A stretch of 54,652 nucleotides of DNA from Candidatus Onthocola stercorigallinarum (lineage in GTDB: Bacteria > Bacillota_I > Bacilli_A > RF39 > UBA660): NCBI GenBank assembly GCA_018715145.1, contig DVMD01000079.1, forward strand, positions 1 to 54,652, read 5' to 3'. A program made the position numbers and the translations under genes. The notes beneath the pieces were generated by a model that did no database searches, was not told the DNA's origin, and saw only the letters and a program-made list of their open reading frames with translations. Positions 2,975-15,375 of this stretch are shown in pieces. Positions within the stretch are counted from its first letter, which is position 1; the number at the start of each line of letters is the position of its first letter.

Positions 2975-5900
2975 TTATCTTGCATAAGCCTTTTCGTAGG
3001 TTTGACATTCTACTTCTTCATTATCAGAGAAATCTATTACTTCTTTTTCCTTATCATTCATATTTAATTTTATATTTAATTCGTCTAATCTTTTAGATTT
3101 TTCTTTTAATTCTTGCTCTTGTTTGAAAGGTCTTTTTGCTTCTTCTTTTGCATTTTCAAATTGTAAATTGGTATCTTCTAGTGATGTTATAGTATCTTTT
3201 AATATTTCGTTTATATCTTTTAATTTATTATCAATACGTGTAATATTTCCACTAGGATCAGTTCCTAAACTAACTTCATAAGACAATTTATTTTTTAAAA
3301 TCAAGTTAAAAGTTCTTCCTACTTTATCAAACTCAATACTTGTTTTAAATCCTTTATATTCTCCCAATTCTATTGGCTCTGGATTAGTCATACCCTTACA
3401 AATTTCTAATATTCTATTTCCTGCTTCCATTCTATCTGTATAGGTTTTATCTTTAATAACCATACTATCGAACTTAATTTCTTCGGTCTGTAAATTACTA
3501 TTTAATAGTTCTATATCTTCTTTTAAATCCGATATTTTTGTTTTTAATCTTTTAATTTCATTAGGATAATATTTAATTATTTTATCCTCTATTGCATATA
3601 TCTGACTTAAATGACTTTGCTTTAATAATTTTAATTTGGCAACCTCTGTATCAAGTTCTGTCTTTTCAATTATTAGGGGATTACCAGAAGCAAGAGATTT
3701 AATTTCAGCATAAGATAAAGCTGTTTCATCAATATCTTCTGCACTTCTAACTGGTGTTTTAGAAGTCATTATTTGTGAAATAAATCGTTGTTTATTTTCT
3801 ACCAACTGATAAAGATATGCGTCAAATGTTCCCTCAGTTACATAGCGATAGATAAACACCTCTGGATTATTATTTCCTTGTCTGATAATTCTTCCAGAGC
3901 GTTGTATTAAATCGCTAGGTCGCCACGGACAGTCAAGATCGTGTAATGCTATAAGTTTATCTTGGCAGTTAGTTCCTGCACCCATTTTTTGGGTACTGCC
4001 CATTAAAACTCTGGTAATTCCTTTCCTAACTTTTGCAAATAATTCTTTCTTTCTAATATCAGTATTTGCATAATGAATAAATTGTACTTCATCTTCTGGT
4101 ACACCCATTTCTTCTAGTTTTTTCTTTAAGTCATCATATACATTAAACTTACCATCATTGTGTGGAGTGGACAAGTCACAGAATACAAGTTGAGTAAGTT
4201 TTTGGTCTTTATTTTCTTCCCATATACGATAAATATTTTTAGCACAGGTAGCAACTTTACTGTTTGGATCATCTGGTAATATTTCATTCATAAGTCTTTG
4301 ATCTAGTGCTAATTTTCTACCATCATTTGTAATTTTAAGCATATTATCAATAGATGAGTCTACCATTTTATTTCTTACTCTTTCAGCACGTTCTGCAAGT
4401 TCTGCAACCATTTCTTTTTGCAATTCAGTAGGCTTTACTACAACATTTTCATAGTTTGCTTTTGGTACTGGTAGATTAAGCATATCTGATGTTTGAATAT
4501 CAGCAACTTCTTTAAACATTGCAAGTAATTCTGGTAGATTATAGAATTTTGCAAATCTTGTTTTAGCACGATAACCTGTCCCCTCTGGTGCAAGTTCTAT
4601 GGCAGTTACTGTTTCTCCAAAGGTCGAAGCCCAAGCGTCAAAATTCTGGAGATTTCTTTTTTCAAGTTCTGCATACTGCAAATATCTTTGCATTGTATAT
4701 AATTCTACCATACTATTACTTACTGGTGTTCCTGTGGCAAACGTAACACCTTTTCCACCAGTTAGTTCATCAAGATAGCGACATTTCATATATAAATCAC
4801 TAGATTTTTGTGCTTCTGTTTGAGCTATGCCACCCACGTTTCTCATCTTTGTATATAAAAAGAGATTCTTATAATAATGTGCTTCATCAACAAATATTCT
4901 ATCGACACCTAACTCCTCAAATGTGACAACATCATCTTTTCTTGATGTGTCATTTAATTTCTTTAATTTTGTTTCCAAAGTCTTTTGTGTTTTCATTAAC
5001 TGTTTGATAGTAAATCTTTCTCCGTGATTTTCTTTTAAATCTGCTATGCTTCGCATAATGTCATCTATTTGCTTTTGTAGTATTTGTGTTTGTCTTTCAA
5101 CAGACATTGGTATTTTTTCAAATTGACTGTGTGAGATAATAACTGCGTCATAATCTCCTGTTGCGATTCGTGAACAAAACTTCTTTCTATTACCAGTTTC
5201 AAAGTCTTTCTTTGTCGTTACGAGAATGTTCGCAGATGGATATAATTGCAGAAATTCTGAACTAAACTGTTCCACAATATGATTAGGTACTACAAACATA
5301 CTTTTATTACATAGTCCTAATCTTTTTGCTTCCATAGCTGCAGCAACCATTGTAAACGTTTTCCCTGCTCCAACTTCGTGTGCTAATAAGGTATTACCTC
5401 CATAAAGTATTCTTGCTACTCCATTTATTTGATGTTTTCGTAGTTTTATTTCTGGATTCATTCCATTAAATCTAATATGTGAGCCATCAAATTCTCTTGG
5501 TCGAATTGAATTAAATTTTTCATTATATATTTTACATAGTCTTTGTCTACGTTCTGGATCAGTCCATATCCATTCTTCAAAAGCACTCTTTATTTGTTCT
5601 TGCTTTGCTTGTGCAATAGCCGTTTCTTTTTTATTTAATTCTGGTACTCGCCTACCCTCATCATCTATTGTATAATCATAAACTCTTACATCTTTTAAAT
5701 TAAGTGTTTCTTCTATAATTTTATAAGCATTTACTCTATGAGTACCAAAAGTAGAATTGGCTTTTACATTTCCTCTATCATAGTTTTTATTTTCAATACT
5801 CCATTGGGCTGTACTTTCCATATAATGAACTTTCACACTATCTTTTACATACCAAGATGGAGTTAGTAAATACCACATAAATTCTTCTATATCTTCTGGT

Positions 5901-8900
5901 GGCAACCACGTTGCACCTAATCTTACGGCAATTTCACTTGCTTCTAAATCTTTGGGTTGTACTTCTTTTAAATGTTTTACATTTGTTTCAAACCTTGAAT
6001 CTGTTTTAGAAAATTCTTCGGCTATTTTTAATTTTTCTCTAACATTACCACTCAAATATTCATCAGCAGTTACCCATATATTTGGATCACCGTAAGTTGG
6101 AACATTGAATATCTGTCCCTCTAAATCTTCTATCATTTTATCCATATCCATACCAGTTAATTTTTGCATATAATCAAGGTCAACTCTTGCCTTTTCAGAT
6201 ATAGATACAACTAATGCTTCTTGGGCAGTATCAACTTTTGTTATTTCAATATTTGGCTTAATAGTTCTTTTTGTGAACATATCAGCCTTGCATTTTAATT
6301 CTTTATTTTCGTCTAATATTTCTAACGAACATAATAAATAAAAACTATTATCATTAGAAAAAGCAGAGGTATTTGCTCTGCTATTGATAAGACCATATTT
6401 TTTTGTAAAATTATCATATAAAACATTTAACTTTCTTTGTTCTTGCTTTATATCTTCGTCTGGATAATCTTCTGTTTGTAGTTCAATTAAAGTTCTAACA
6501 CAATCTCTAATTTCAATTAAGCCTTTTATTCTATTTTGAGTAGTAAGTGGTAATTCTTGTGGATACATTCTACTGTTTTCACGATAATATATTTTATTAT
6601 CTACTAATGTGTATGAGAAGTTTCTAACACTTACATCAGCAGGAATTGATAAATCTTCCTCATTTTCTTCTACGTCATCAAATTCATATTCTTTTATTTC
6701 AGCGTGTATATTTTGAATTGCTTTATTTAATTGTTCTTCAAGTGTAGTATCTTCATTTGCTTTACAAGCAGAGTCCATACCAAATTGTGTAGATTCCATT
6801 ACCATATTTCCACAAATCATCTCTGGATAATCTATGAAATATTTATTCATTTTGATACCATCTTCATTTGTATCTAAATGCACCCACTCTGGCTCTAAAT
6901 CTGTGATAGAATCTCTTTTTTGTAGGAATATAATATCTGAAGTTACTTTTGTTCCTGCGTTTGCTTTGAAAGTATTATCCGGCAAACGAATAGCACCTAA
7001 AAGGTCTGCTCTTTGAGCAATATATTTTCGTACAGCAGAACTTTCCTTATCAAGTGTACCTTTACTCGTGATAAAAGCAATAACTCCTCCCGGTCTTACT
7101 TTATCTATGGCTTTTGCAAAGAAATAATCGTGAATCAAAAAATTGTGTTTATCATACTTTTTATCTAGTAATTTAAAATCTCCAAATGGGACATTTCCAA
7201 TACAACCATCAAAAAAAGAGTCTGGAAGTGCAGTATTTTCAAACCCTTGTACTGCAATAGAACTCTTTTGATATAATTGTTGTGCTATTTTACCAGATAT
7301 TTTATCAAGTTCTACTCCGTATAATTTACATTCATTAAGAGTTTCTGGCAACATTCCTATAAAATTACCCGTACCACACGCAGGCTCTAGGATATTTGCC
7401 GTTTTCATACCCATTTGTTCTAGTGCTTTATACATTGTTCTAATAACTACTGGTGGTGTATAAAAAGCAGTTAAAGTTGATTCCATTGCTGATTTATATT
7501 CATCTTCATCTAGCAAATTCTTTAATTCTAAATACTCACTCTCCCAAGAACTATTTTTCTCATCAAAGGCTTGTGGTAATCCACCCCATCCAACATATTG
7601 AGATAACACTTTTTGTTCTTCTGGTGTAGCAAAACGATTTTCTTTTTCACACAATTTCAAAACTTTAATTGCTTCAACATTTCGATTAAACTTTTCTCTA
7701 TCTGTTCCAACACCTAACATATCATCAGTAATATGAAAATTGTACCTATCTTCATTTTTAATTTCTGGGTGTAAATCAAAAGTAGTAACTTTCGATTTTT
7801 TCTTTTTTTCAAAAGCAGGTACAAATTCTGTCTTTTCTTTTTCAGTCAGTAATTCTTTTACATAGTCTATATTTTCTTCTCTAAATATAGGAAAGCCAGT
7901 TGTACCTTGAAAAGTAACATCTCTTAAAGATACTCTATCATTATGGATAGTATCAACAATAAACTCTCTATTATCTATTGTTAGATGTTCTCCCACAAGA
8001 TCATCAACTTGTGATGTTTGCTCCTGTATTTCTTCTTTTGTTTCTTCTTTTGGAGTTATTTCTTCTACTGTCTTACTTTTCTTTACCTTTAAATGGTCAT
8101 TAGCAGGATTTTCTTGAACTTTCCTATCAAATTCTTCTCGTGTCATTTCCTTATTAAACAAAGGATATTGATAATCATATAATCTAACTGTGTTTTCATC
8201 AAATGAAAGAATTTCGTATTCTTCTGCACCAATATATACTTTATCTCCTAAATGATACTCATATTCTTCAATAAAATCTTCTTGTTGTTCTACTATTTCA
8301 ATATCATTTTGTTCTTCTTGTTCTAAAACATTTTCATCTTTATATTCTTCTCTTTGACTATTTTCATATTTTTCTAACCACGTTGGATAATATTCTTTTT
8401 CTTTTGGGTTTAGATAACGATCCAAACTTATTAGTTCTTTTAATCGTTTTTCAATAGTATTCCATTTTAATAATATTTCTATCTCATCTGCTTCATATCC
8501 TCGATATAAAGTAATTCCTTTACCATTGCTATTAAACCCAACACCAGAGCCTTTTACCGTATGGCTACTTCCACTTATTCCATAAAGATTTTTTAAAAAT
8601 GTTATATTATCACTTGTAGACAAACTGCTTTGTAATTGTCTATAAATATAATACTTTCTTTCAGAGTTTTGCTCTTGAAAAAAAGTATCTATGAACTCTT
8701 GTGAAAATTCTAACTCTGGTCTTTCTTGTTCTTCAGTAAGGTCTAGTAATGATAATTGTTCTTTTTCAGTAGGTAACTTCTGTTTTCTATCATATAACTG
8801 TTTCAACAATATCATTGAATTATAATGTTCAGTTAAATCTTCCCAACTTATAAAACTTTCGGTATCTCTTGATAGGAAGTTTCCTTTCCAAATTAAAAGT

Positions 8901-10348
8901 CCATTGTCAAATGCTTTATACCCATATAATTCAGTACCGACATAAATACCAACATAGACATTATCAAAAGCATTTTTTAAATATTCTGCTCTTTTAGTTT
9001 TATCTTTTTCGGTTTCAAAATAATTTCTAATTTCTTCATTAGTAACTTTTAAATTAGCAGAACTTAATATTTGATTTACTTTTGCGTCTATAACGACATA
9101 AGGACAGTGATGACTGTCCTTATCAAATACTCCTAATTGTAAATTAGTTCTTTCGTTGTTATCTCCTCTGCTATCATCTTCAAGTTGTTCATTAAGCCTA
9201 CCCATTTCATCTGGTCTTGTTGTTTCAATTCCTCGTTGATATTCTCTTTTATCCTCATCTGTGATACTAATTGTTCCACTCTCATTTCTGATTGTTCCTG
9301 TATCTCTGATAGATGTTCCATCAACTGGTCTTTCATTAGGAGTGTTGTGTATAATGCTTTCTTGTGTTCTTTTAGGTAGTTTAGCCTCATCAATGCGTAT
9401 TTCCCATTGACTTCTTTCCTCTCTTTCGGTGGCAACATTAGGTCTGGTATTTTGTAATCTCCCTGCATTGTGTAAGTTACTTTTTGCATATTCCTCGCTC
9501 CTTTCACTTTCAATATTTCTGTTTTCACTTATATCATAATCTATTTGTTTTTCTTTATCAAATGTGCGAATTTTATCTATTTCATTTTTTCGTACATTTT
9601 TAATAGTAGCATATATTTCACGCAAACCCATTTCAGATATATCACTTGTAGCAACACCTAATCTAGTTATTGTGTCATAAGTATTGAACTCTTGTATATC
9701 TTTAAAATCATCTGCTTTAAAATATTCAGTAGGATCAATACCACATCTTTTCATCATCATAAAAGCAACACTATTTGATAATAAAGTCTGATATGTTGCT
9801 TTAATATGGTTATCATCTTGCGAGCCTAACATACTATTATCAGAAAATTGTTTTAAATCTTCTAAATAATCTGGCAAGTTATCTTCTACCATATTATATG
9901 CAGATGAAATAATTGCAGTCGCAAGAGAGGTTTTATTCTCTAATTCTCCATATCTGTTTTCTAATGCTTCTATAACATTTTCTTCATAAGCCTTTGTTAC
10001 TGTCCAAAGAAGAAAGTTTTTGCCTAATCTACTATTGGTATCCGATACATCAAACACATATCTTAAAAACGGATACCCATTTTTTTCGGTAAGTAGAGCA
10101 ATACCAGTCGCTCCTTTATTTACCCATCTTTTAAAACTTCTATTCCAAGTTTCAATTTCAGCACAAGCAACAGTTTCTGGTTTTTGGGCATATATAAGTG
10201 CTTGATCGGAGAAAGAATATTTATAATTCATTGCAGCACATTCCATAAATGAAAGCCACTCATCTGGACTTTTACTTATTTCTTTTAATGTTTCTCCATA
10301 TAATTCTGTAATATCTCTAATTCTTCTAGTCAATATAGTCACCTCCAT
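2975..10348 (-). CDS. Large polyvalent conjugative-element protein: ArdC-like N-terminal domain, N6-adenine DNA methyltransferase, SNF2/DEAD-type helicase, coiled-coil C-terminus
   Basis: 7.4-kb ORF. Methyltransferase motif I EPACGTGNF and catalytic GNVPFG lie around nt 7180-7390. Helicase Walker A is AHEVGAGKT (about 5360-5385), the DEAH box is VDEAHYYKN (about 4880) and motif VI is QRSGRIIRQGN (about 3890). The N-terminus (SFMECAAMNYKYSFSDQALIYAQKPETVACAEIETWNRSFKRWVNKGATGIAL) resembles ArdC-type ssDNA-binding domains. A TTG start at 10333 behind GGAGGTGA is a possible alternative. Confidence 0.9.
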   Translation of the reverse strand: MEVTILTRRIRDITELYGETLKEISKSPDEWLSFMECAAMNYKYSFSDQALIYAQKPETVACAEIETWNRSFKRWVNKGATGIALLTEKNGYPFLRYVFDVSDTNSRLGKNFLLWTVTKAYEENVIEALENRYGELENKTSLATAIISSAYNMVEDNLPDYLEDLKQFSDNSMLGSQDDNHIKATYQTLLSNSVAFMMMKRCGIDPTEYFKADDFKDIQEFNTYDTITRLGVATSDISEMGLREIYATIKNVRKNEIDKIRTFDKEKQIDYDISENRNIESERSEEYAKSNLHNAGRLQNTRPNVATEREERSQWEIRIDEAKLPKRTQESIIHNTPNERPVDGTSIRDTGTIRNESGTISITDEDKREYQRGIETTRPDEMGRLNEQLEDDSRGDNNERTNLQLGVFDKDSHHCPYVVIDAKVNQILSSANLKVTNEEIRNYFETEKDKTKRAEYLKNAFDNVYVGIYVGTELYGYKAFDNGLLIWKGNFLSRDTESFISWEDLTEHYNSMILLKQLYDRKQKLPTEKEQLSLLDLTEEQERPELEFSQEFIDTFFQEQNSERKYYIYRQLQSSLSTSDNITFLKNLYGISGSSHTVKGSGVGFNSNGKGITLYRGYEADEIEILLKWNTIEKRLKELISLDRYLNPKEKEYYPTWLEKYENSQREEYKDENVLEQEEQNDIEIVEQQEDFIEEYEYHLGDKVYIGAEEYEILSFDENTVRLYDYQYPLFNKEMTREEFDRKVQENPANDHLKVKKSKTVEEITPKEETKEEIQEQTSQVDDLVGEHLTIDNREFIVDTIHNDRVSLRDVTFQGTTGFPIFREENIDYVKELLTEKEKTEFVPAFEKKKKSKVTTFDLHPEIKNEDRYNFHITDDMLGVGTDREKFNRNVEAIKVLKLCEKENRFATPEEQKVLSQYVGWGGLPQAFDEKNSSWESEYLELKNLLDEDEYKSAMESTLTAFYTPPVVIRTMYKALEQMGMKTANILEPACGTGNFIGMLPETLNECKLYGVELDKISGKIAQQLYQKSSIAVQGFENTALPDSFFDGCIGNVPFGDFKLLDKKYDKHNFLIHDYFFAKAIDKVRPGGVIAFITSKGTLDKESSAVRKYIAQRADLLGAIRLPDNTFKANAGTKVTSDIIFLQKRDSITDLEPEWVHLDTNEDGIKMNKYFIDYPEMICGNMVMESTQFGMDSACKANEDTTLEEQLNKAIQNIHAEIKEYEFDDVEENEEDLSIPADVSVRNFSYTLVDNKIYYRENSRMYPQELPLTTQNRIKGLIEIRDCVRTLIELQTEDYPDEDIKQEQRKLNVLYDNFTKKYGLINSRANTSAFSNDNSFYLLCSLEILDENKELKCKADMFTKRTIKPNIEITKVDTAQEALVVSISEKARVDLDYMQKLTGMDMDKMIEDLEGQIFNVPTYGDPNIWVTADEYLSGNVREKLKIAEEFSKTDSRFETNVKHLKEVQPKDLEASEIAVRLGATWLPPEDIEEFMWYLLTPSWYVKDSVKVHYMESTAQWSIENKNYDRGNVKANSTFGTHRVNAYKIIEETLNLKDVRVYDYTIDDEGRRVPELNKKETAIAQAKQEQIKSAFEEWIWTDPERRQRLCKIYNEKFNSIRPREFDGSHIRFNGMNPEIKLRKHQINGVARILYGGNTLLAHEVGAGKTFTMVAAAMEAKRLGLCNKSMFVVPNHIVEQFSSEFLQLYPSANILVTTKKDFETGNRKKFCSRIATGDYDAVIISHSQFEKIPMSVERQTQILQKQIDDIMRSIADLKENHGERFTIKQLMKTQKTLETKLKKLNDTSRKDDVVTFEELGVDRIFVDEAHYYKNLFLYTKMRNVGGIAQTEAQKSSDLYMKCRYLDELTGGKGVTFATGTPVSNSMVELYTMQRYLQYAELEKRNLQNFDAWASTFGETVTAIELAPEGTGYRAKTRFAKFYNLPELLAMFKEVADIQTSDMLNLPVPKANYENVVVKPTELQKEMVAELAERAERVRNKMVDSSIDNMLKITNDGRKLALDQRLMNEILPDDPNSKVATCAKNIYRIWEENKDQKLTQLVFCDLSTPHNDGKFNVYDDLKKKLEEMGVPEDEVQFIHYANTDIRKKELFAKVRKGITRVLMGSTQKMGAGTNCQDKLIALHDLDCPWRPSDLIQRSGRIIRQGNNNPEVFIYRYVTEGTFDAYLYQLVENKQRFISQIMTSKTPVRSAEDIDETALSYAEIKSLASGNPLIIEKTELDTEVAKLKLLKQSHLSQIYAIEDKIIKYYPNEIKRLKTKISDLKEDIELLNSNLQTEEIKFDSMVIKDKTYTDRMEAGNRILEICKGMTNPEPIELGEYKGFKTSIEFDKVGRTFNLILKNKLSYEVSLGTDPSGNITRIDNKLKDINEILKDTITSLEDTNLQFENAKEEAKRPFKQEQELKEKSKRLDELNIKLNMNDKEKEVIDFSDNEEVECQTYEKAYAR
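9133..9489 (-). CDS. TnpV-like protein (118 aa) encoded in an alternative frame inside the giant polyvalent gene
   Basis: The same-strand alternative frame is open over 9133..9528. AAAGGAG lies 8 nt upstream of ATG 9489. Product: MQKVTYTMQGDYKIPDLMLPPKERKEVNGKYALMRLNYLKEHKKALYTTLLMKDQLMEHLSEIQEQSEMRVEQLVSQMRIKENINEELKQQDQMKWVGLMNNLKMIAEEITTKELIYN. From memory this matches the transposon-encoded TnpV family along its whole length. Confidence 0.55.
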   Translation of the reverse strand: MQKVTYTMQGDYKIPDLMLPPKERKEVNGKYALMRLNYLKEHKKALYTTLLMKDQLMEHLSEIQEQSEMRVEQLVSQMRIKENINEELKQQDQMKWVGLMNNLKMIAEEITTKELIYN

Positions 10349-10368
10349 TCTGTTTTATATTTTGCTTC

Positions 10369-10704
10369 TTATTCATTATTCATTTCTTGTTTTTTCGCTT
10401 CTCTTACCTTTTGTAGGACTTCAAAATAGTTGGTACTAATATCTAGGTCATCTACATTGTAAATTAGCATATATATAATTTCTGACGCTTCATTAGGATA
10501 AAATCTAATATCAACTTTTGTATCTTGTCCCTCCTCTGTTCTTGGAATACTATATCTTAATAGTTTATCTTTCATTTTAGTTGCAAGTTGTGCAACTCTT
10601 TCATCACTCATTTGTGTATATCTTGTAAGCATTTCCACTAATAAATTAAATTTTTCTATACTTAATTCCACTTTTACAGGTGGTATTCTTTTTTGATATG
10701 GCAT
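10369..10704 (-). CDS. Hypothetical conjugative-element protein (111 aa)
   Basis: ORF with GGAG-type RBS context, co-oriented and tightly packed with its neighbours. No motif recognised. Confidence 0.6.
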   Translation of the reverse strand: MPYQKRIPPVKVELSIEKFNLLVEMLTRYTQMSDERVAQLATKMKDKLLRYSIPRTEEGQDTKVDIRFYPNEASEIIYMLIYNVDDLDISTNYFEVLQKVREAKKQEMNNE

Positions 10705-10719
10705 TTTATAATCTCCTTT

Positions 10720-10914
10720 CTATCTTTCAAAATCTCTATTTTCTTTTACTTTGCTGACTAAAGAAATATTGTTTTGATATTTTTCTAATGCTTCTTTCAA
10801 AGCAGTATTTGCTAGTAATTCATCTACTTTTGATTGTGCTTCTTTTTTATTATGTGCTTGAACTTCAAAAGTAATTTTTCCATTTATATTTACATCTACT
10901 TCAAATGTTTTCAT
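10720..10914 (-). CDS. Hypothetical small protein (64 aa)
   Basis: Its start overlaps the stop of the upstream 77-aa ORF by 4 nt (coupling). No motif recognised. Confidence 0.5.
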   Translation of the reverse strand: MKTFEVDVNINGKITFEVQAHNKKEAQSKVDELLANTALKEALEKYQNNISLVSKVKENRDFER

Positions 10915-11144
10915 TTGCTCTCATTTCCTTTCTCATAATTTCCACTTAAAAAAGCAATTATCTGTTTATTTTTAATTGCTTCTTTGAACTCAATAATAGT
11001 CATTATTTCGGCAGAAGATAATGTTGGTATTTTCTTTAAATCTGCCATCTGCATTGCAAGTATTTTTTTATCTGTATTAAAACCTGCTTTAAATAATTTT
11101 TCTAATGTTTTTGTAATTAGATTTAAACTATACTTTACCTCCAT
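10911..11144 (-). CDS. Hypothetical small protein (77 aa)
   Basis: Compact ORF between the sortase gene and the 64-aa ORF. No motif recognised. Confidence 0.5.
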   Translation of the reverse strand: MEVKYSLNLITKTLEKLFKAGFNTDKKILAMQMADLKKIPTLSSAEIMTIIEFKEAIKNKQIIAFLSGNYEKGNESK

Positions 11145-11156
11145 TTTATCCCTCCT

Positions 11157-11816
11157 CTATATCTTTTCTACCAATTCACATATAATTACTATTTGTTTAT
11201 TAGTATTATGTCTGCACGTTATTAGTGTTAAAGTGCTTTTTTGGGCATTTCTTGTTATTTCAACACTTCCAGTTTTTTCTACATCATAAGTATTTATCAT
11301 TCTGTACTTATACTCATATCCATTGTAGAAAATACTAACCGTGTCATCTATTTGTAATTTATCAAGATTTTTAAAAAATGCTGTTCTTCCATTTCCACTA
11401 TGTGCAGCTAAAATAACATTTCCATTTTCTTGATCAGGCATATCTGATTCATCTAGTATTTTAATGTTTCGATTTACATTATTATAATAACTATCTTTGG
11501 CAACTAATCCTTTTTCTAGTCCTATACTAGGTATTTTTAAAACTGCAATATAATCTAGTGAATTTGTACTTTTTGCTTGTTCAGTTGTATTATCCGTTTC
11601 TTCTGTTTCAGTTGGTATTTCATTATCAATTTTTTCTTGTTCTTCATAAAATTCTACCAAAGCAATATCTTCTAAATTATCTGCTCTTACATCAAGGAAT
11701 ATTTTAATTCCAATTACACTAATACCAATTAAGATAAGCAAAGAGCCAACTATTAAAAGTTGACTCTTTTTGCCTTTCTTATTGTTGTTTTTTTCTTTTT
11801 TTAACATAAACAACAA
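11157..11816 (-). CDS. Sortase (membrane-anchored cysteine transpeptidase)
   Basis: N-terminal TM segment, catalytic His context ILAAHSGNG, catalytic Cys motif LTLITCRHN. It overlaps the adhesin 3' end by 38 nt. Confidence 0.85.
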   Translation of the reverse strand: MLFMLKKEKNNNKKGKKSQLLIVGSLLILIGISVIGIKIFLDVRADNLEDIALVEFYEEQEKIDNEIPTETEETDNTTEQAKSTNSLDYIAVLKIPSIGLEKGLVAKDSYYNNVNRNIKILDESDMPDQENGNVILAAHSGNGRTAFFKNLDKLQIDDTVSIFYNGYEYKYRMINTYDVEKTGSVEITRNAQKSTLTLITCRHNTNKQIVIICELVEKI

Positions 11817-14550
11817 CTCCTATTCCACTTATAATTAGTAATCCACCAACAATTTCGATAATATGATAATCGTTAATTCCTGTATTTGGAACTTCAACAA
11901 CAACTTTTTCATTTTCCATTGTGGCTTTTACAATTTCTCCATCCTCAAGAATTTCAAAATACATTCTTTCTTCATTAAGGATATAGCCCTCTGGTGCCTC
12001 TTTTTCTAAAATATAATAGCGACCATATCTCATTTCTTCAATAATAATTTTTCCATTTTCGTCAGTTCTACCACTAAATACTAATTCATCTTTGTCATTA
12101 TAAATTTCAATTAGTGTATTTGGTAATGGTGTTCCTGTTGATAAATCTACTTTTGTAAATTCAAGAGTACCTGTAATAGGTTTATTTTTCATTTCTGCTT
12201 TAATTACCTCGCCATCTTCTGTGATTTCAAAAGTAACTTTTTCATCTGTTATTACATAGCCAGTTGCACTTTCCTTTTCTAAAATATAGTATTTTTTTCC
12301 TGCAACTAGGTCAGTAATTATAATTTGACCATTCTCATCAGTTTCTCCTGTGAAAATTAGTTCATCTGTATCTTCTACATAGATTTCAATAACTGTATTT
12401 GAAATAGGCTCTCCATTTACTAAATCAGTTTTTGTAAATTCAAGTTCTCCCTTTTTCAATTCATTTTTTAATTTTAATGTTTCAGATACAATGGCAGTTT
12501 TATTATCAATTTCAGTTAATTCAATTTTGTGTTCAGTTGTATCAATAACGTGATTATCTACTGTCTTGGTTTCCTTAATTAGATATTTTCCCAAATAAAG
12601 GTCAGTAAATGTGGCAGTTCCCTCTGATCCTGTTTCAATAGATTTTATGAACTCGCCCTTTTTATAATGAGTAACACCATCTGGTGTAATAATGTCCTCA
12701 TCTGCATAAATTGAAAACTCTACTCCACTTAATTTGATTTCTTCATAAGAGTATTTTCCATCTTCAATAGTAAATGCTTCTCCTGTTTTTTCGATTACAA
12801 CTTCGCCCATTATTTTATCATTAGCAAATTCAACTTCAATATATTTGCCATAATCATCATCTTCGATAATTGTACTATTCTCATCTAATCTAAATACAAT
12901 ACCTTCTTCATTTAAAAGATAGCCAGACGGACTTGTTAGTTCCTCGATTTGATAAGTGGCACTTGTTAAAGGGTATGGAGTGATAAACACACCGTTTTCA
13001 TCTGTTTTGAACTCGCAAATTTCTTCTTTATCTGGATAAGTTACTTTTTGACATACATATTCTCCCGTATCAAGATTTTTAATTTTAAATGTTACATTTT
13101 CATAAGGTATAACTTTTCCAGATTCAGAGTCTGTCTTTACAAGTTTTAATTTTGCTGTAATTGGAGCATTTGATAATGAATATCTTATTGTTTCTGGTGA
13201 ATTTCCATTAACAACTATTTTAAAGTCTTTTACTTTTTCGTGTCCATCTGTTGTATTAAGTTGTTTTACTGTATAAGTGCCATAAACGAGATTAACTTTT
13301 GAGTAACCTTGTTCATCTGTCTTAACAGTTGTAACGTGATTTCCCTTGCTATCATAAATACCAAATTCGATATTAACTTCTGGTTTTAAAATTCCTGTTT
13401 CTGCACTTGCATAATACTTATTGATTTCAACATCTCTTTTAATGATTTGCTCATACACACTTATTGCAGGGTGTAAATCTTCAGTAGTAATTTCAAAATA
13501 GTATTTATTTGTATCTAGTTCATAACCTGTACTTGGACTAATTTCTTTTAAATAGAATGTTCCAATGTCTGGTAAAATTGGACTTGTTACTGTACCATCT
13601 GCTTTTGTTGTAACTTTTTCTACTAATTCATCATTAAGATTATAAATACCATAAACTGCTCCCTCTAGTGTTGCTTCAACACCTTGTGGCTCGTTTGTTT
13701 GAGTATCATTATCTTTCTTTTCTACTGTTACATCTCCACCTTTGGTATCGACTTTAACAGAAGCAACTACTGGATCAGAAAATCTAAAATAACCCATTTT
13801 TTGAGAATTTACTCCATTTCCTAAATACACAATAGTTGTAAAATTATCGTAATGTTTTCTTACAACATTTAATGTTTGCTCACCAACTTCAAGTGGTGTG
13901 ACATATATATCATTTCCATCTATTCTAACAGAAAGTCCATCAGAACTATAAACTTCATATTCACTTAATACACCATTTGTATCAGTTAGTTTAAATTCTT
14001 GACCTATTACTGCTTCTTGTGTTGTTCCATTGAAGCTAGGTTTATTATAATGAGAATTTACTAATCTCATTATTTCATTTTTCTCTGCGTCTATGTTGAT
14101 ATAATCCCCATATCCAGAGGCTTGAGTCCAAAATTCTACAATTTGACCACCTGTTGTTTCCCATATAAGGGCTTGTGCAGCCATTCTATATCTTAATGTT
14201 TGATGTCCGGGATAGTCATATCCATAGTGACCAATAAGTTCTATTTTTTTATTGATCTCATCACTATATGGAGATGACTGTAATCCATCATAGCCTAAAT
14301 AACTTGTTGTAGCAATATCAATTCCCGGCTCTATGCAATAGACAACTTTTCCGTTCATCGTATAAGTTTCATATTGTGCTGACATATATGGCTTTCCACC
14401 ACCACGTCTTGTGTACCATACATCTGGTACTTTTGGATGTGATAATGTTTCATTTGTCGCTGCACTTACTATTGCTGGTATAGAAAAAGCAAATACTTCA
14501 AACAAAGTAAGTGCTATTAACAATACTGATAATAATTTTTTCTTTTTCAT
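11779..14550 (-). CDS. Cell-wall-anchored adhesin: signal peptide, thioester-like N-terminal domain, multiple Cna-B/SpaA-type repeats, VPNTG sorting signal
   Basis: Signal peptide MKKKKLLSVLLIALTLFEVFAFS. The YCIEPG and AAQALIWE pair is typical of Cys-Gln thioester domains. Repeated modules include TDENGQIIITDLVAGKKYYILEKESATGYVI and TDENGKIIIEEMRYGRYYILEKEAPEGYIL. The C-terminus is VPNTG, a hydrophobic helix and KKRKKQQ. Confidence 0.9.
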   Translation of the reverse strand: MKKKKLLSVLLIALTLFEVFAFSIPAIVSAATNETLSHPKVPDVWYTRRGGGKPYMSAQYETYTMNGKVVYCIEPGIDIATTSYLGYDGLQSSPYSDEINKKIELIGHYGYDYPGHQTLRYRMAAQALIWETTGGQIVEFWTQASGYGDYINIDAEKNEIMRLVNSHYNKPSFNGTTQEAVIGQEFKLTDTNGVLSEYEVYSSDGLSVRIDGNDIYVTPLEVGEQTLNVVRKHYDNFTTIVYLGNGVNSQKMGYFRFSDPVVASVKVDTKGGDVTVEKKDNDTQTNEPQGVEATLEGAVYGIYNLNDELVEKVTTKADGTVTSPILPDIGTFYLKEISPSTGYELDTNKYYFEITTEDLHPAISVYEQIIKRDVEINKYYASAETGILKPEVNIEFGIYDSKGNHVTTVKTDEQGYSKVNLVYGTYTVKQLNTTDGHEKVKDFKIVVNGNSPETIRYSLSNAPITAKLKLVKTDSESGKVIPYENVTFKIKNLDTGEYVCQKVTYPDKEEICEFKTDENGVFITPYPLTSATYQIEELTSPSGYLLNEEGIVFRLDENSTIIEDDDYGKYIEVEFANDKIMGEVVIEKTGEAFTIEDGKYSYEEIKLSGVEFSIYADEDIITPDGVTHYKKGEFIKSIETGSEGTATFTDLYLGKYLIKETKTVDNHVIDTTEHKIELTEIDNKTAIVSETLKLKNELKKGELEFTKTDLVNGEPISNTVIEIYVEDTDELIFTGETDENGQIIITDLVAGKKYYILEKESATGYVITDEKVTFEITEDGEVIKAEMKNKPITGTLEFTKVDLSTGTPLPNTLIEIYNDKDELVFSGRTDENGKIIIEEMRYGRYYILEKEAPEGYILNEERMYFEILEDGEIVKATMENEKVVVEVPNTGINDYHIIEIVGGLLIISGIGVVVYVKKRKKQQ

Positions 14551-14575
14551 ACTCTATCATTTCCTTTCCTAAATT

Positions 14576-14604
14576 AAAAAAAGCAACCGTTTTATTGGTC
14601 GCTT
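14576..14604 (-). terminator. Rho-independent terminator after the 204-aa gene
   Basis: The minus strand reads AAGCGACC-aataaaac-GGTTGCTT followed by TTTTTTT. Confidence 0.5.
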
Positions 14605-14624
14605 ATAACTAAAATTTTATTTAA

Positions 14625-15239
14625 TTATTCCATTGGATTTGTATAATCAATGTGTAACTTATATCCTAACACTTCGCCTTTATAAATTATTTCTTGACAA
14701 CTAAAACCCAATATATTTACTGTGTCTGCAAAGGCTTTTTCAAAACCTGCTTTCTGGCATTCCTCGTAAGTATCATATTCCACCTGTTTTTTTAACCTTT
14801 CATATTCCTCATCAACTTGTGGTGTTTGCTCCTGTATTTCTTCTTGAACATTGCTAGTAGTTGGTGGATTTTGAGTTGGTAATTGTTCTTCTTGAATTTG
14901 AGATTTGTTTTCGCTTTGCTCCGTTTTAACAGACTGTTTCGTTTCCTCTTTTGGAGTTACAGTAGTTTGTTTTTCGGTATTCCTTTGAGCCTCTTTATTT
15001 TCTTGCTCCTCTTGTTTTTCTTCTGTCGCTCCATTTGAAGTTTCTGCCTTTTCTGTTTCATTAACCGTTTCTATATTTTCTTTCATCTCATTTGTTTCTT
15101 CAATTTCACTTCCCACGTTCACTTTTTCTTCCACCTCTGTTTTCGCATTTTCTCTGTTTAGTGTTAATATTGCAACACCAATAGCAATCAAGAGCACAAA
15201 AATAATTACAACTACAACTTTTTTTCTCATACCAATCAC
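14625..15239 (-). CDS. Membrane-anchored protein with E/Q/T-rich low-complexity region and small Cys-containing C-terminal domain
   Basis: N-terminal TM segment VVVVIIFVLLIAIGVAILTL, a long acidic low-complexity spacer and a structured tail YEECQKAGFEKAFADTVNILGFSCQEIIYKG. Confidence 0.65.
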   Translation of the reverse strand: MIGMRKKVVVVIIFVLLIAIGVAILTLNRENAKTEVEEKVNVGSEIEETNEMKENIETVNETEKAETSNGATEEKQEEQENKEAQRNTEKQTTVTPKEETKQSVKTEQSENKSQIQEEQLPTQNPPTTSNVQEEIQEQTPQVDEEYERLKKQVEYDTYEECQKAGFEKAFADTVNILGFSCQEIIYKGEVLGYKLHIDYTNPME

Positions 15240-15375
15240 TTCCTTTGGTATTAGTATAATCTAAAATATTTATTCTTGCATTTGTGTAATTATATATTTT
15301 TTTTCAGTTAGTATTACAGTTAGTAATATACTAGGGAGGTTTGTAAGGAGGGATTTACCGTAAAAGATACTCCCA

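Follow-up and report, generated by a model that had tools for sequence, protein, structure and literature searches.

A TnpV gene nested in a second reading frame of giant polyvalent-protein genes of conjugative elements

Long genes nested out of frame inside other genes are held to be rare in bacteria, and annotation pipelines discard them. One such gene is comS of Bacillus subtilis, which encodes a protein of 46 amino acids and is located out of frame, on the same strand and with its own internal start, inside srfAB; it is not known beyond close Bacillus relatives, and no free-standing homologue of it is known. Two open frames over the same DNA, with an element resembling a Shine-Dalgarno (SD) sequence near the frame junction, are also found in the programmed frameshift genes dnaX, prfB and IS3 orfAB. 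We report here a gene of the TnpV family (Pfam PF14198) that is wholly nested in the second frame of a giant gene of Candidatus Onthocola stercorigallinarum. The stretch of DNA that was analysed (hereafter the window) comprises 54,652 nt, corresponding to positions 1-54,652 of the forward strand of contig DVMD01000079.1 (assembly GCA_018715145.1), and belongs to a conjugative element with a G+C content of about 28%. The closest known mechanistic analogue of this arrangement is comS inside srfAB: in both cases a small protein is encoded wholly inside a very large multidomain Firmicute gene, in another frame. The nested TnpV differs from comS by its length of 118 amino acids, by its membership of a Pfam family with free-standing members and by its maintenance with the host gene across several classes of Bacillota. 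Moreover, the overlapped part of its host is a disordered linker without amino-acid constraint, and TnpV seemingly has a promoter of its own.

The host gene (2975..10348, minus strand) encodes a protein of 2457 amino acids and belongs to the class of the polyvalent proteins of conjugative elements (Iyer et al. 2017, PMC5512222), since several enzymatic domains are carried by a single polypeptide on a conjugative element. It corresponds to the gene named snf2 in the streptococcal and enterococcal literature, where it is described from the integrative and conjugative elements (ICEs) of the ICESa2603 family and from enterococcal plasmids (PMC12942858). The likeness concerns the giant multidomain organization, the putative ArdC-N-type header, the methyltransferase, the SNF2 helicase and the position among conjugation genes. 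These papers mention no TnpV, no overlapping frame and no internal gene, and they treat the linker that follows the header as plain protein; frameshifting is likewise unmentioned in PMC5512222. For its part, the TnpV of Tn4451 is described as a protein of unknown function or as a conjectured Xis-like factor (PMC3158075). In the MOBQ2 integrative and mobilisable elements (IMEs) of Faecalibacterium, TnpV is noted as a domain whose function is unknown and which "may be involved in their transfer" (PMC12084326). The TnpVs of the Tn4451/Tn4453 type belong to the same Pfam family as the window copy, have a similar size and are, as here, always found on mobile elements; they differ from it in being free-standing, for example next to a serine recombinase or upstream of tet(O/W), whereas the window copy is nested and has no recombinase among its called neighbours. 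A position beside a large serine recombinase, as in Tn4451, is a trait of context and does not define the family. No earlier report of the nesting was found in the literature on TnpV, PF14198, polyvalent proteins and overlapping genes, a coverage that leaves out most subscription journals.

The nested gene and its recurrence

A preliminary description of the window, established from its letters, had noticed a same-strand frame open for 131 codons inside the giant gene, with the motif AAAGGAG 8 nt before an ATG at 9489 and a product assigned to the TnpV family, and had described the host frame over the same nucleotides as a low-complexity linker. Each of these observations was borne out. The open reading frame (ORF) occupies positions 9133..9528 (minus strand), from a GTG codon at 9528 to the stop. 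Elsewhere in the host gene, the +1 frame contains 202 stops and has a median open run of 7 codons, the next-longest run being of 53 codons as against 131. The TnpV coding sequence itself, composed of 118 codons and a TAG, extends over 9133..9489 (minus strand), with the ATG at 9489..9487 and the stop at 9135..9133. It spans nucleotides 860-1216 of the host gene (amino acids 287 to 406 of the host protein) and is read one base out of phase (+1). The product matches the whole PF14198 profile (positions 1-111 of 111), with an E-value of 5.9e-37 and a score of 126.5 bits for a cut-off of 27; NCBIfam provided no useful name for it. The AlphaFold2 model of TnpV (pLDDT 88.4) displays a beta-hairpin plus a helical bundle. 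The SD AAAGGAG is located at 9498..9504 (minus strand) and is separated from the ATG by the 8-nt spacer CGAGGAAT. The RNA around this SD is predicted to be unstructured (z = 0.08), and a masking of the SD by RNA structure is not supported by this value. The 13 codons comprised between the GTG at 9528 and the ATG are probably untranslated, because the open run upstream of the ATG in the TnpV frame varies from 0 to 89 codons among the lineages defined below.

In the host frame, the same nucleotides belong to a linker of about 165 residues (amino acids 262-427; 9068..9565, minus strand) that contains the whole TnpV cassette in its +1 frame. The AlphaFold2 model of host amino acids 1-520 is confident up to residue 261, falls to pLDDT 24-47 over residues 262-427 and then shows a folded domain; this profile places the whole cassette within a predicted disordered linker. 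Across TnpV, the host protein is of low complexity, with 77% of disorder-promoting residues as compared with 60% in the remaining host protein. The SD is read in the host frame as a recurrent E-R-S motif, and the TnpV blocks QGDY and DQMKWV appear there as "AGRLQ" and "RPDEMG", respectively. The sole conserved patches of the linker are explained in this way, as echoes of the SD and of these two blocks.

GTDB was scanned, with one genome per species, using a TnpV alignment as query; at least 584 loci were matched and the best 80 were examined. With blastn, the region gave no match in plasmids, the informative searches being those made at the protein level. The tblastn search of TnpV against plasmids recovered two distant records, in which TnpV is 47-51% identical to the window copy and its ORF has the same place and frame within a giant ORF, which comprises 3208 codons in one record and 2554 in the other. 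TnpV is wholly nested in a same-strand ORF at 76 of these 82 loci (80 from GTDB and two plasmids), always in the +1 frame of the host, a proportion that holds for the best 80 matches to a nested query and is not the nested fraction of the whole TnpV family. At the nested loci, TnpV is situated at a median of 844 nt from the host start, and the host ORFs with both ends within the contig have a median length of 2478 codons. The exceptions are five or six free-standing genes, which belong to a subtype of 122-126 amino acids, and one locus with extra frame breaks.

More distant giant genes, increasingly diverged, were picked by searching the N-terminal domain of the host protein against plasmids. 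Seven giant genes with a nested TnpV were obtained in this way, from Clostridium botulinum, Clostridium perfringens, Virgibacillus, Bacillus thuringiensis (pMC183), Enterococcus faecalis, Listeria (pLM1-2cUG1) and Selenomonas. Their N-terminal domains are 21-32% identical to that of the window. The +1 ORF comprises 113-145 codons and starts at host amino acids 230-244 in six of these genes, and comprises 173 codons from host amino acid 173 in Selenomonas; all seven products pass the Pfam TnpV cut-off, with 29-86 bits. The TnpVs of B. thuringiensis and E. faecalis, used in turn as queries, matched 27 and 26 further plasmid records, most of them underlying genes annotated merely as "SNF2-related", "helicase-related" or "N-6 DNA methylase".

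Two further loci were observed beside this sampling. In Streptococcus agalactiae CP138365.1, the snf2 gene of an ICE of the ICESpy009/ICESa2603 type (host ORF 8001-15296) contains a +1 ORF of 140 codons at host amino acid 260, the equivalent position. Its product scores 15.9 bits against Pfam TnpV, below the cut-off, and could represent a very divergent TnpV in this much-studied ICE family. The second locus is a 2.5-kb contig (ENA ERZ28614770) where a TnpV at 1878-2234 is 98% identical to the window copy. A divergent AAA_21/SMC_N gene is found there 88 nt upstream of TnpV, in place of the N-terminal domain, and the downstream sequence of the giant gene is intact; this arrangement may correspond to an insertion, a rearrangement or an assembly chimera.

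Selection on the two frames

The nested TnpVs were clustered at 90% identity, which gave 42 lineages. To obtain the number of stops expected in the host frame, the codons of each TnpV were replaced by synonymous ones drawn according to the codon usage of the respective host gene. In all 42 lineages the host frame contains no stop across TnpV, where 2-13 stops are expected on average; the probability that it would be open under recoding ranges from 0 to 0.098 across lineages, with a median below 2e-4. For the window TnpV, recoding gives a mean of 10.4 stops and leaves the host frame open in 0 of 5000 trials, in agreement with the argument of the preliminary description that two frames open over such a length are not expected by chance. 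A host-frame stop can arise only where a TnpV codon ending in T precedes a codon beginning with AA, AG or GA. At these at-risk junctions, 0 of 1546 TnpV codons end in T, as against 476 of 3355 elsewhere. The third frame contains 7-27 stops over TnpV in the 42 lineages. The seven distant loci have a stop-free host frame over TnpV and show the same avoidance of T, and the free-standing TnpVs contain 3-14 stops in the frame equivalent to that of the host. Both frames are therefore open over the whole overlap, beyond chance, in 42 of 42 lineages and at the 7 distant loci, and the comparison of homologous giant genes proposed in the preliminary description came out in favour of two maintained frames.

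These counts bear on another reading of the locus, according to which the N-terminal domain, tnpV and the helicase/methylase would each form a cistron, with a host frame left open across tnpV by compositional accident or as a recent relic. Some RefSeq records do call TnpV and start a SNF2 gene downstream, and variants with a broken host frame circulate. However, the absence of stops in the 42 lineages and the seven distant ones persists despite saturated synonymous sites (2-15 stops expected), the free-standing TnpVs do have stops in that frame, no stop closes the N-terminal domain and no conserved start opens the downstream part, so that we regard a division into three cistrons as very improbable.

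The selective pressures on the two frames were estimated from 74 nested loci by an OLGenie-style count of nonsynonymous and synonymous changes (dN/dS), where changes are classed by their effect in both frames. This count, which is a simplified one made on non-independent pairs with very few sites synonymous in both frames, gives a dNN/dSN of 0.18-0.27 for the TnpV frame (bootstrap confidence interval 0.11-0.35) and a dNN/dNS of 0.93-1.18 for the host frame in the overlap (confidence interval spanning 1). Synonymous sites are saturated among the nested loci, with a dSN of up to 1.4. At the level of the aligned sequences, these values establish that purifying selection acts on the amino-acid sequence of TnpV and that the host frame appears to be selected solely for the absence of stops. 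Purifying selection on TnpV beside neutral amino acids in the host defines an asymmetric pair, composed of a constrained protein and an "open spacer". The word "overprinting", used in the preliminary description, calls for a caveat: TnpV is the constrained partner and the host frame is passenger-like, so that the origin may have gone in either direction.

Long nested genes are generally rare in bacteria, and this is the only point that would speak for an alternative-frame ORF that is a decaying remnant or a chance ORF without a product. Such a reading is scarcely credible in view of the full-length Pfam match, the dN/dS of about 0.2, the ATG and SD present in 42 of 42 lineages, the retention of TnpV alongside the host domain down to 16-29% identity and the next-longest +1 run of only 53 codons. 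The nested TnpV is confirmed as a real and non-random feature, much broader than the window. The comparative support for the pair is unusually strong for a long out-of-frame gene, with a recognized 118-codon family, an SD and an ATG dedicated to it and, apparently, a dedicated promoter as well. With one frame encoding a constrained folded protein and the other a merely open linker, the pair is a naturally occurring model for the sharing of DNA between two genes.

Probable internal initiation, frameshift variants and the candidate promoter

In the 42 nested lineages, TnpV always begins with an ATG preceded by an SD of the GAAAGGAG type, with a spacing of 6-9 nt. The explanation that we favour, and hold to be very probable, is that TnpV is an independently initiated and separately expressed nested gene, across which the giant protein reads as an unconstrained linker. 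The linker DNA carries a compact TnpV cassette made of a promoter-like -35/-10 pair, a strong SD, an ATG, 118 codons and a stop. Ribosomes coming from the host start codon would read this cassette in frame 0 as a spacer, whose sequence would be irrelevant provided that it is free of stops, and other ribosomes would bind the internal SD and ATG and produce TnpV in the +1 frame. The full-length mRNA could serve for this initiation, as probably could a shorter transcript begun at the internal promoter. Dual coding and internal initiation, which the preliminary description listed as separate options, are really one model, supported by the SD and ATG of the 42 lineages, the purifying selection on TnpV, the stop-free host frame and the free-standing members of the family.

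The third option listed there was a frameshift product. The search with the N-terminal domain (host amino acids 1-280) recovered, among the 120 best matches, many proteins of 383-415 amino acids that contain a Pfam TnpV domain. In these fusion proteins the switch from the host frame to the TnpV frame is found at many different positions of the overlap and nearly all of the proteins are singletons, as expected if any 1-nt insertion or deletion in a doubly open stretch yields such a fusion. One fusion contig aligned with the window differs from it by the deletion of a single base outside any homopolymer. An N-domain-TnpV fusion of about 396 amino acids was considered as a general architecture and rejected, the switch points being scattered and most of the proteins singletons. 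The frameshift variants in the overlap nevertheless leave misleading "ArdC-N-TnpV fusion" entries in the databases.

One variant, P0164, is recurrent. It was found on at least 24 contigs and encodes a fusion of 396 amino acids with the N-terminal domain in the TnpV frame, the frame being set by a 1-nt difference in a run of six A residues (A6) that shortly precedes the SD. On the P0164 contigs L083-L086 (ENA metagenome), the gene is located at 10001-11191 of L083 and the junction near 10800-10850. The host-type frame restarts after three stops and is open through TnpV into a downstream helicase gene of 1856 amino acids. A fit mutant, phase variation or slippage at this site could each account for it.

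These proteins are part of the case for recoding, in which TnpV would be the C-terminal part of an ArdC-N-TnpV fusion of about 400 amino acids, produced by programmed +1 frameshifting or by transcriptional slippage, with the SD acting as a stimulator. The position of TnpV in the +1 frame, the SD-like element just upstream, the many database proteins of this architecture and the recurrence of P0164, with its A6 run and its open host-type frame, are all consistent with such a mechanism. On the other hand, six lineages (L015, L034, L035, L038, L040 and L082) have a stop in the TnpV frame 0-2 codons before the ATG, in some cases between the SD and the ATG, and an upstream shift would terminate there. 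The open run upstream of TnpV has no constant length, and no conserved slippery sequence was noticed in the aligned upstream regions, for which no dedicated search was made. In addition, the SD spacing and the invariant ATG suit initiation, and the scattered switch points correspond to sporadic genomic insertions and deletions, the one that was checked being a non-homopolymer deletion. In contrast to dnaX, prfB and IS3 orfAB, the TnpV locus thus combines its own start codon with a stop before the ATG in several lineages and no conserved slippery site seen. Recoding is accordingly improbable in our estimation, and the frameshift option fails as a general mechanism.

As a side observation, none of the 120 best N-domain matches exceeds 490 amino acids, although the 2457-aa protein is recorded in the same collection. 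Contig-end fragments and frameshift variants prevail in the list, which so gives a misleading picture of the architecture of the family; we treat the absence of long proteins from it as a limitation of the search and not as biology.

Upstream of the SD, a consensus scan identified a candidate -35 box TTGATA at 9556..9561 (minus strand) and a candidate -10 box TATGAT at 9533..9538 (minus strand), with 17 nt between the two boxes and 43 nt between the latter and the TnpV ATG. Their conservation was measured on an alignment of 39 lineages anchored on the host protein and not on the motif. In this alignment, third-codon positions are conserved at 0.85 or above only at a T and an ACA just before the -35 box, at the TTG of the -35 box, at the TAT..T of the -10 box, at the SD and at the ATG. 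By comparison, well-conserved residues of the folded N-terminal domain reach a third-position conservation of 0.4-0.7 only. The TTG of the -35 box is invariant in 37 of 37 aligned lineages while the residues that it encodes vary between F, I, L and V and then between A, D, E and V. The TAT..T of the -10 box is conserved at 0.95-1.00, and its final T is invariant while the codon containing it encodes A, D, H, N, P, S or Y. The spacer between the two boxes is exactly 17 nt long in 34 of the 35 lineages that bear the motif, its sequence being free, and the distance from the -10 box to the TnpV ATG varies from 22 to 46 nt. The hexamers thus correspond to TTGnnn and TAnnnT at 17 +/- 1 nt, as in promoters of the sigma-A/sigma-70 type, and are conserved beyond coding constraint. 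A block of 14 nt, AATCGCACATTTGA (window 9556-9571, minus strand), is conserved at silent positions in 34 lineages with a G+C content at third codon positions of 0.12-0.71, and it extends some 8 nt beyond the candidate -35 box on the upstream side. The Arg codon in this conserved block is CGC, which is rare in the host gene (5 uses as against 86 for AGA). The additional nucleotides may represent an UP-like element, a site for a regulator or a function unrelated to the promoter.

We consider it likely, somewhat better than an even chance, that these boxes form an internal promoter of the sigma-A type for TnpV. The competing interpretation is that the internal SD and ATG are used only on the full-length mRNA and that the TTG-17-TATnnT motif is kept for contacts at the end of the N-terminal domain, as a site for a regulator or for recombination, or as an RNA element. 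It has a real though minor share of the probability: the motif stands within the longer block AATCGCACATTTGA that extends beyond the -35 box, and it is missing from some nested lineages and distant plasmids. The invariant nucleotides are, however, the key sigma-A positions, at exactly 17 nt from one another, while the residues and the spacer vary, and the segment is situated in a predicted disordered part of the host protein.

Several points weigh against TnpV as a separately expressed gene with its own promoter. The scanned region contains fewer promoter-like consensus matches than its shuffled versions (4 as against 9.2), so that the case for the promoter is carried by comparative conservation. 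About 5-8 of the 42 lineages lack the promoter-like motif or deviate from it, among them L050 and L068 as well as L047 and L076, the last two with another motif further upstream. Nor is the promoter-like motif apparent in the distant plasmids, and AATCGCACATTTGA could serve another role at the DNA or RNA level. Both the translation of TnpV and the activity of the promoter are deduced from conservation. A sequence-profile search of the PDB and a Foldseek search against the PDB recovered no significant structural relative of TnpV. The choice of the best matches and the simplified dN/dS count mentioned above belong to the same side of the balance.

History, annotation and surroundings of the pair

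For 47 nested loci, the pairwise identities of the N-terminal domains and those of the TnpVs are strongly correlated (Mantel r = 0.86, with 0 of 5000 permutations as high), which indicates that both were inherited together over the whole depth of the family. The pair is ancient and has co-diverged across plasmids and ICEs of Clostridia, Bacilli and Negativicutes. It is maintained from metagenome-assembled genomes (MAGs) of Clostridia to plasmids of Listeria, Enterococcus, the Bacillus cereus group, Clostridium perfringens and Clostridium botulinum, and Selenomonas. Together with the two open frames, the asymmetric selection and the conserved SD and ATG, this co-divergence is established by the sequence comparisons.

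The distant nested TnpVs are only 16-29% identical to one another, and the sampled free-standing TnpVs are 44-57% identical to particular nested ones. The free-standing copies are found beside a serine recombinase on a Campylobacter plasmid, which is the prototype context, upstream of tet(O/W/32/O) in pSGG1, and on a Salmonella IncHI2 plasmid. As the free-standing copies are far closer to nested ones than the distant nested copies are to each other, the most economical reading would be that the sampled free-standing TnpVs left the nest, a reading drawn from identities between short proteins and not from a resolved tree. The copy of pSGG1 (NC_015219.1) is located at 4989-5339, directly upstream of the tet gene. 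Identical protein-level matches to it are present in many plasmids of Campylobacter, Enterococcus and Salmonella, and this TnpV travels with the tet gene across phyla. A link between TnpV and the Tn1806-type integration hotspot of snf2 was also considered and rejected: the published account places the integration sites in methyltransferase genes generally and makes no connection to TnpV.

A bolder proposal is that the TnpV family was born, or spent its deep history, in the linker of the giant gene, and that the free-standing copies of the Tn4451 type, of IMEs and of resistance plasmids are escapees. We regard this as rather unlikely, yet the presence of nested copies on all deep branches keeps it alive; if it were true, a disordered linker would have been the cradle of a folded and widely spread protein family, and "gene bridging", the reading of a giant ORF across a separate gene in a different frame, would likewise be a means to build polyvalent proteins. 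Alternatively, an independent tnpV cassette was possibly bridged when an ArdC-N gene fused to a downstream methylase/helicase gene, an origin favoured by the fact that TnpV is constrained and folded.

The nesting ties TnpV to the machinery of conjugative entry and establishment, and this constitutes a lead on its function. TnpV is stably linked to the head domain of a protein presumed to act on incoming DNA and is present in mobilisable elements, which weakly suggests that it might have a role in transfer or establishment rather than in transposition.

The RefSeq annotation of these loci is inconsistent. Three records call TnpV and truncate, drop or replace the giant gene with a spurious antisense ORF, and others call the giant gene only. 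In NZ_OY725736.1, NZ_CP051681.1 and NZ_CP017043.1 (L002, L094 and L101), a "TnpV protein" is called and the SNF2 gene is begun 120-1900 nt downstream or omitted; their uninterrupted giant ORFs, of 2554, 2086 and 2414 codons respectively, are not annotated as such. In a Cohnella record, RefSeq adds an antisense "hypothetical protein" over the N-terminal domain. Domain censuses of the polyvalent proteins and of TnpV are both biased by these discrepancies.

Concerning the host protein of the window, its domains are, in order, an N-terminal ArdC-N-like domain, the disordered linker, further domains, an N6-methyltransferase region and a SNF2-type helicase. SNF2-rel_dom, ResIII and Helicase_C are above the Pfam cut-offs, and Eco57I/Methyltransf_25 gives a weaker match just below the cut-off. 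The folded N-terminal domain covers amino acids 1-261 (9566..10348, minus strand; AlphaFold2 pLDDT of about 90). It had been called ArdC-like in the preliminary description. This name stands by way of a homologue: the domain is linked by tblastn (E = 1e-7) to Listeria proteins annotated with an "ArdC-like ssDNA-binding domain", and the Listeria homologue passes Pfam ArdcN with 25.3 bits for a cut-off of 22.6. The window domain itself has no direct match to Pfam ArdcN, and the Foldseek search of the model of host amino acids 1-520 against the PDB matched no ArdC structure; the name "ArdC-N-like" is thus given on indirect grounds.

The neighbours of the host gene include ParA/ParB, a SpaA-type pilin and a sortase upstream, and regulators of the helix-turn-helix type, DUF3991/TOPRIM and NikA/MobC-like genes downstream. 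An identical copy of the host protein is called as one gene on two ENA contigs from gut-type metagenomes; the identical 2457-aa protein is found on L088 (ENA ERZ25890363), a contig of 114.9 kb. Finally, the window TnpV is 98% identical to the copy present in CAMMMH010000006.1 (L003), a MAG labelled "uncultured Tenericutes".

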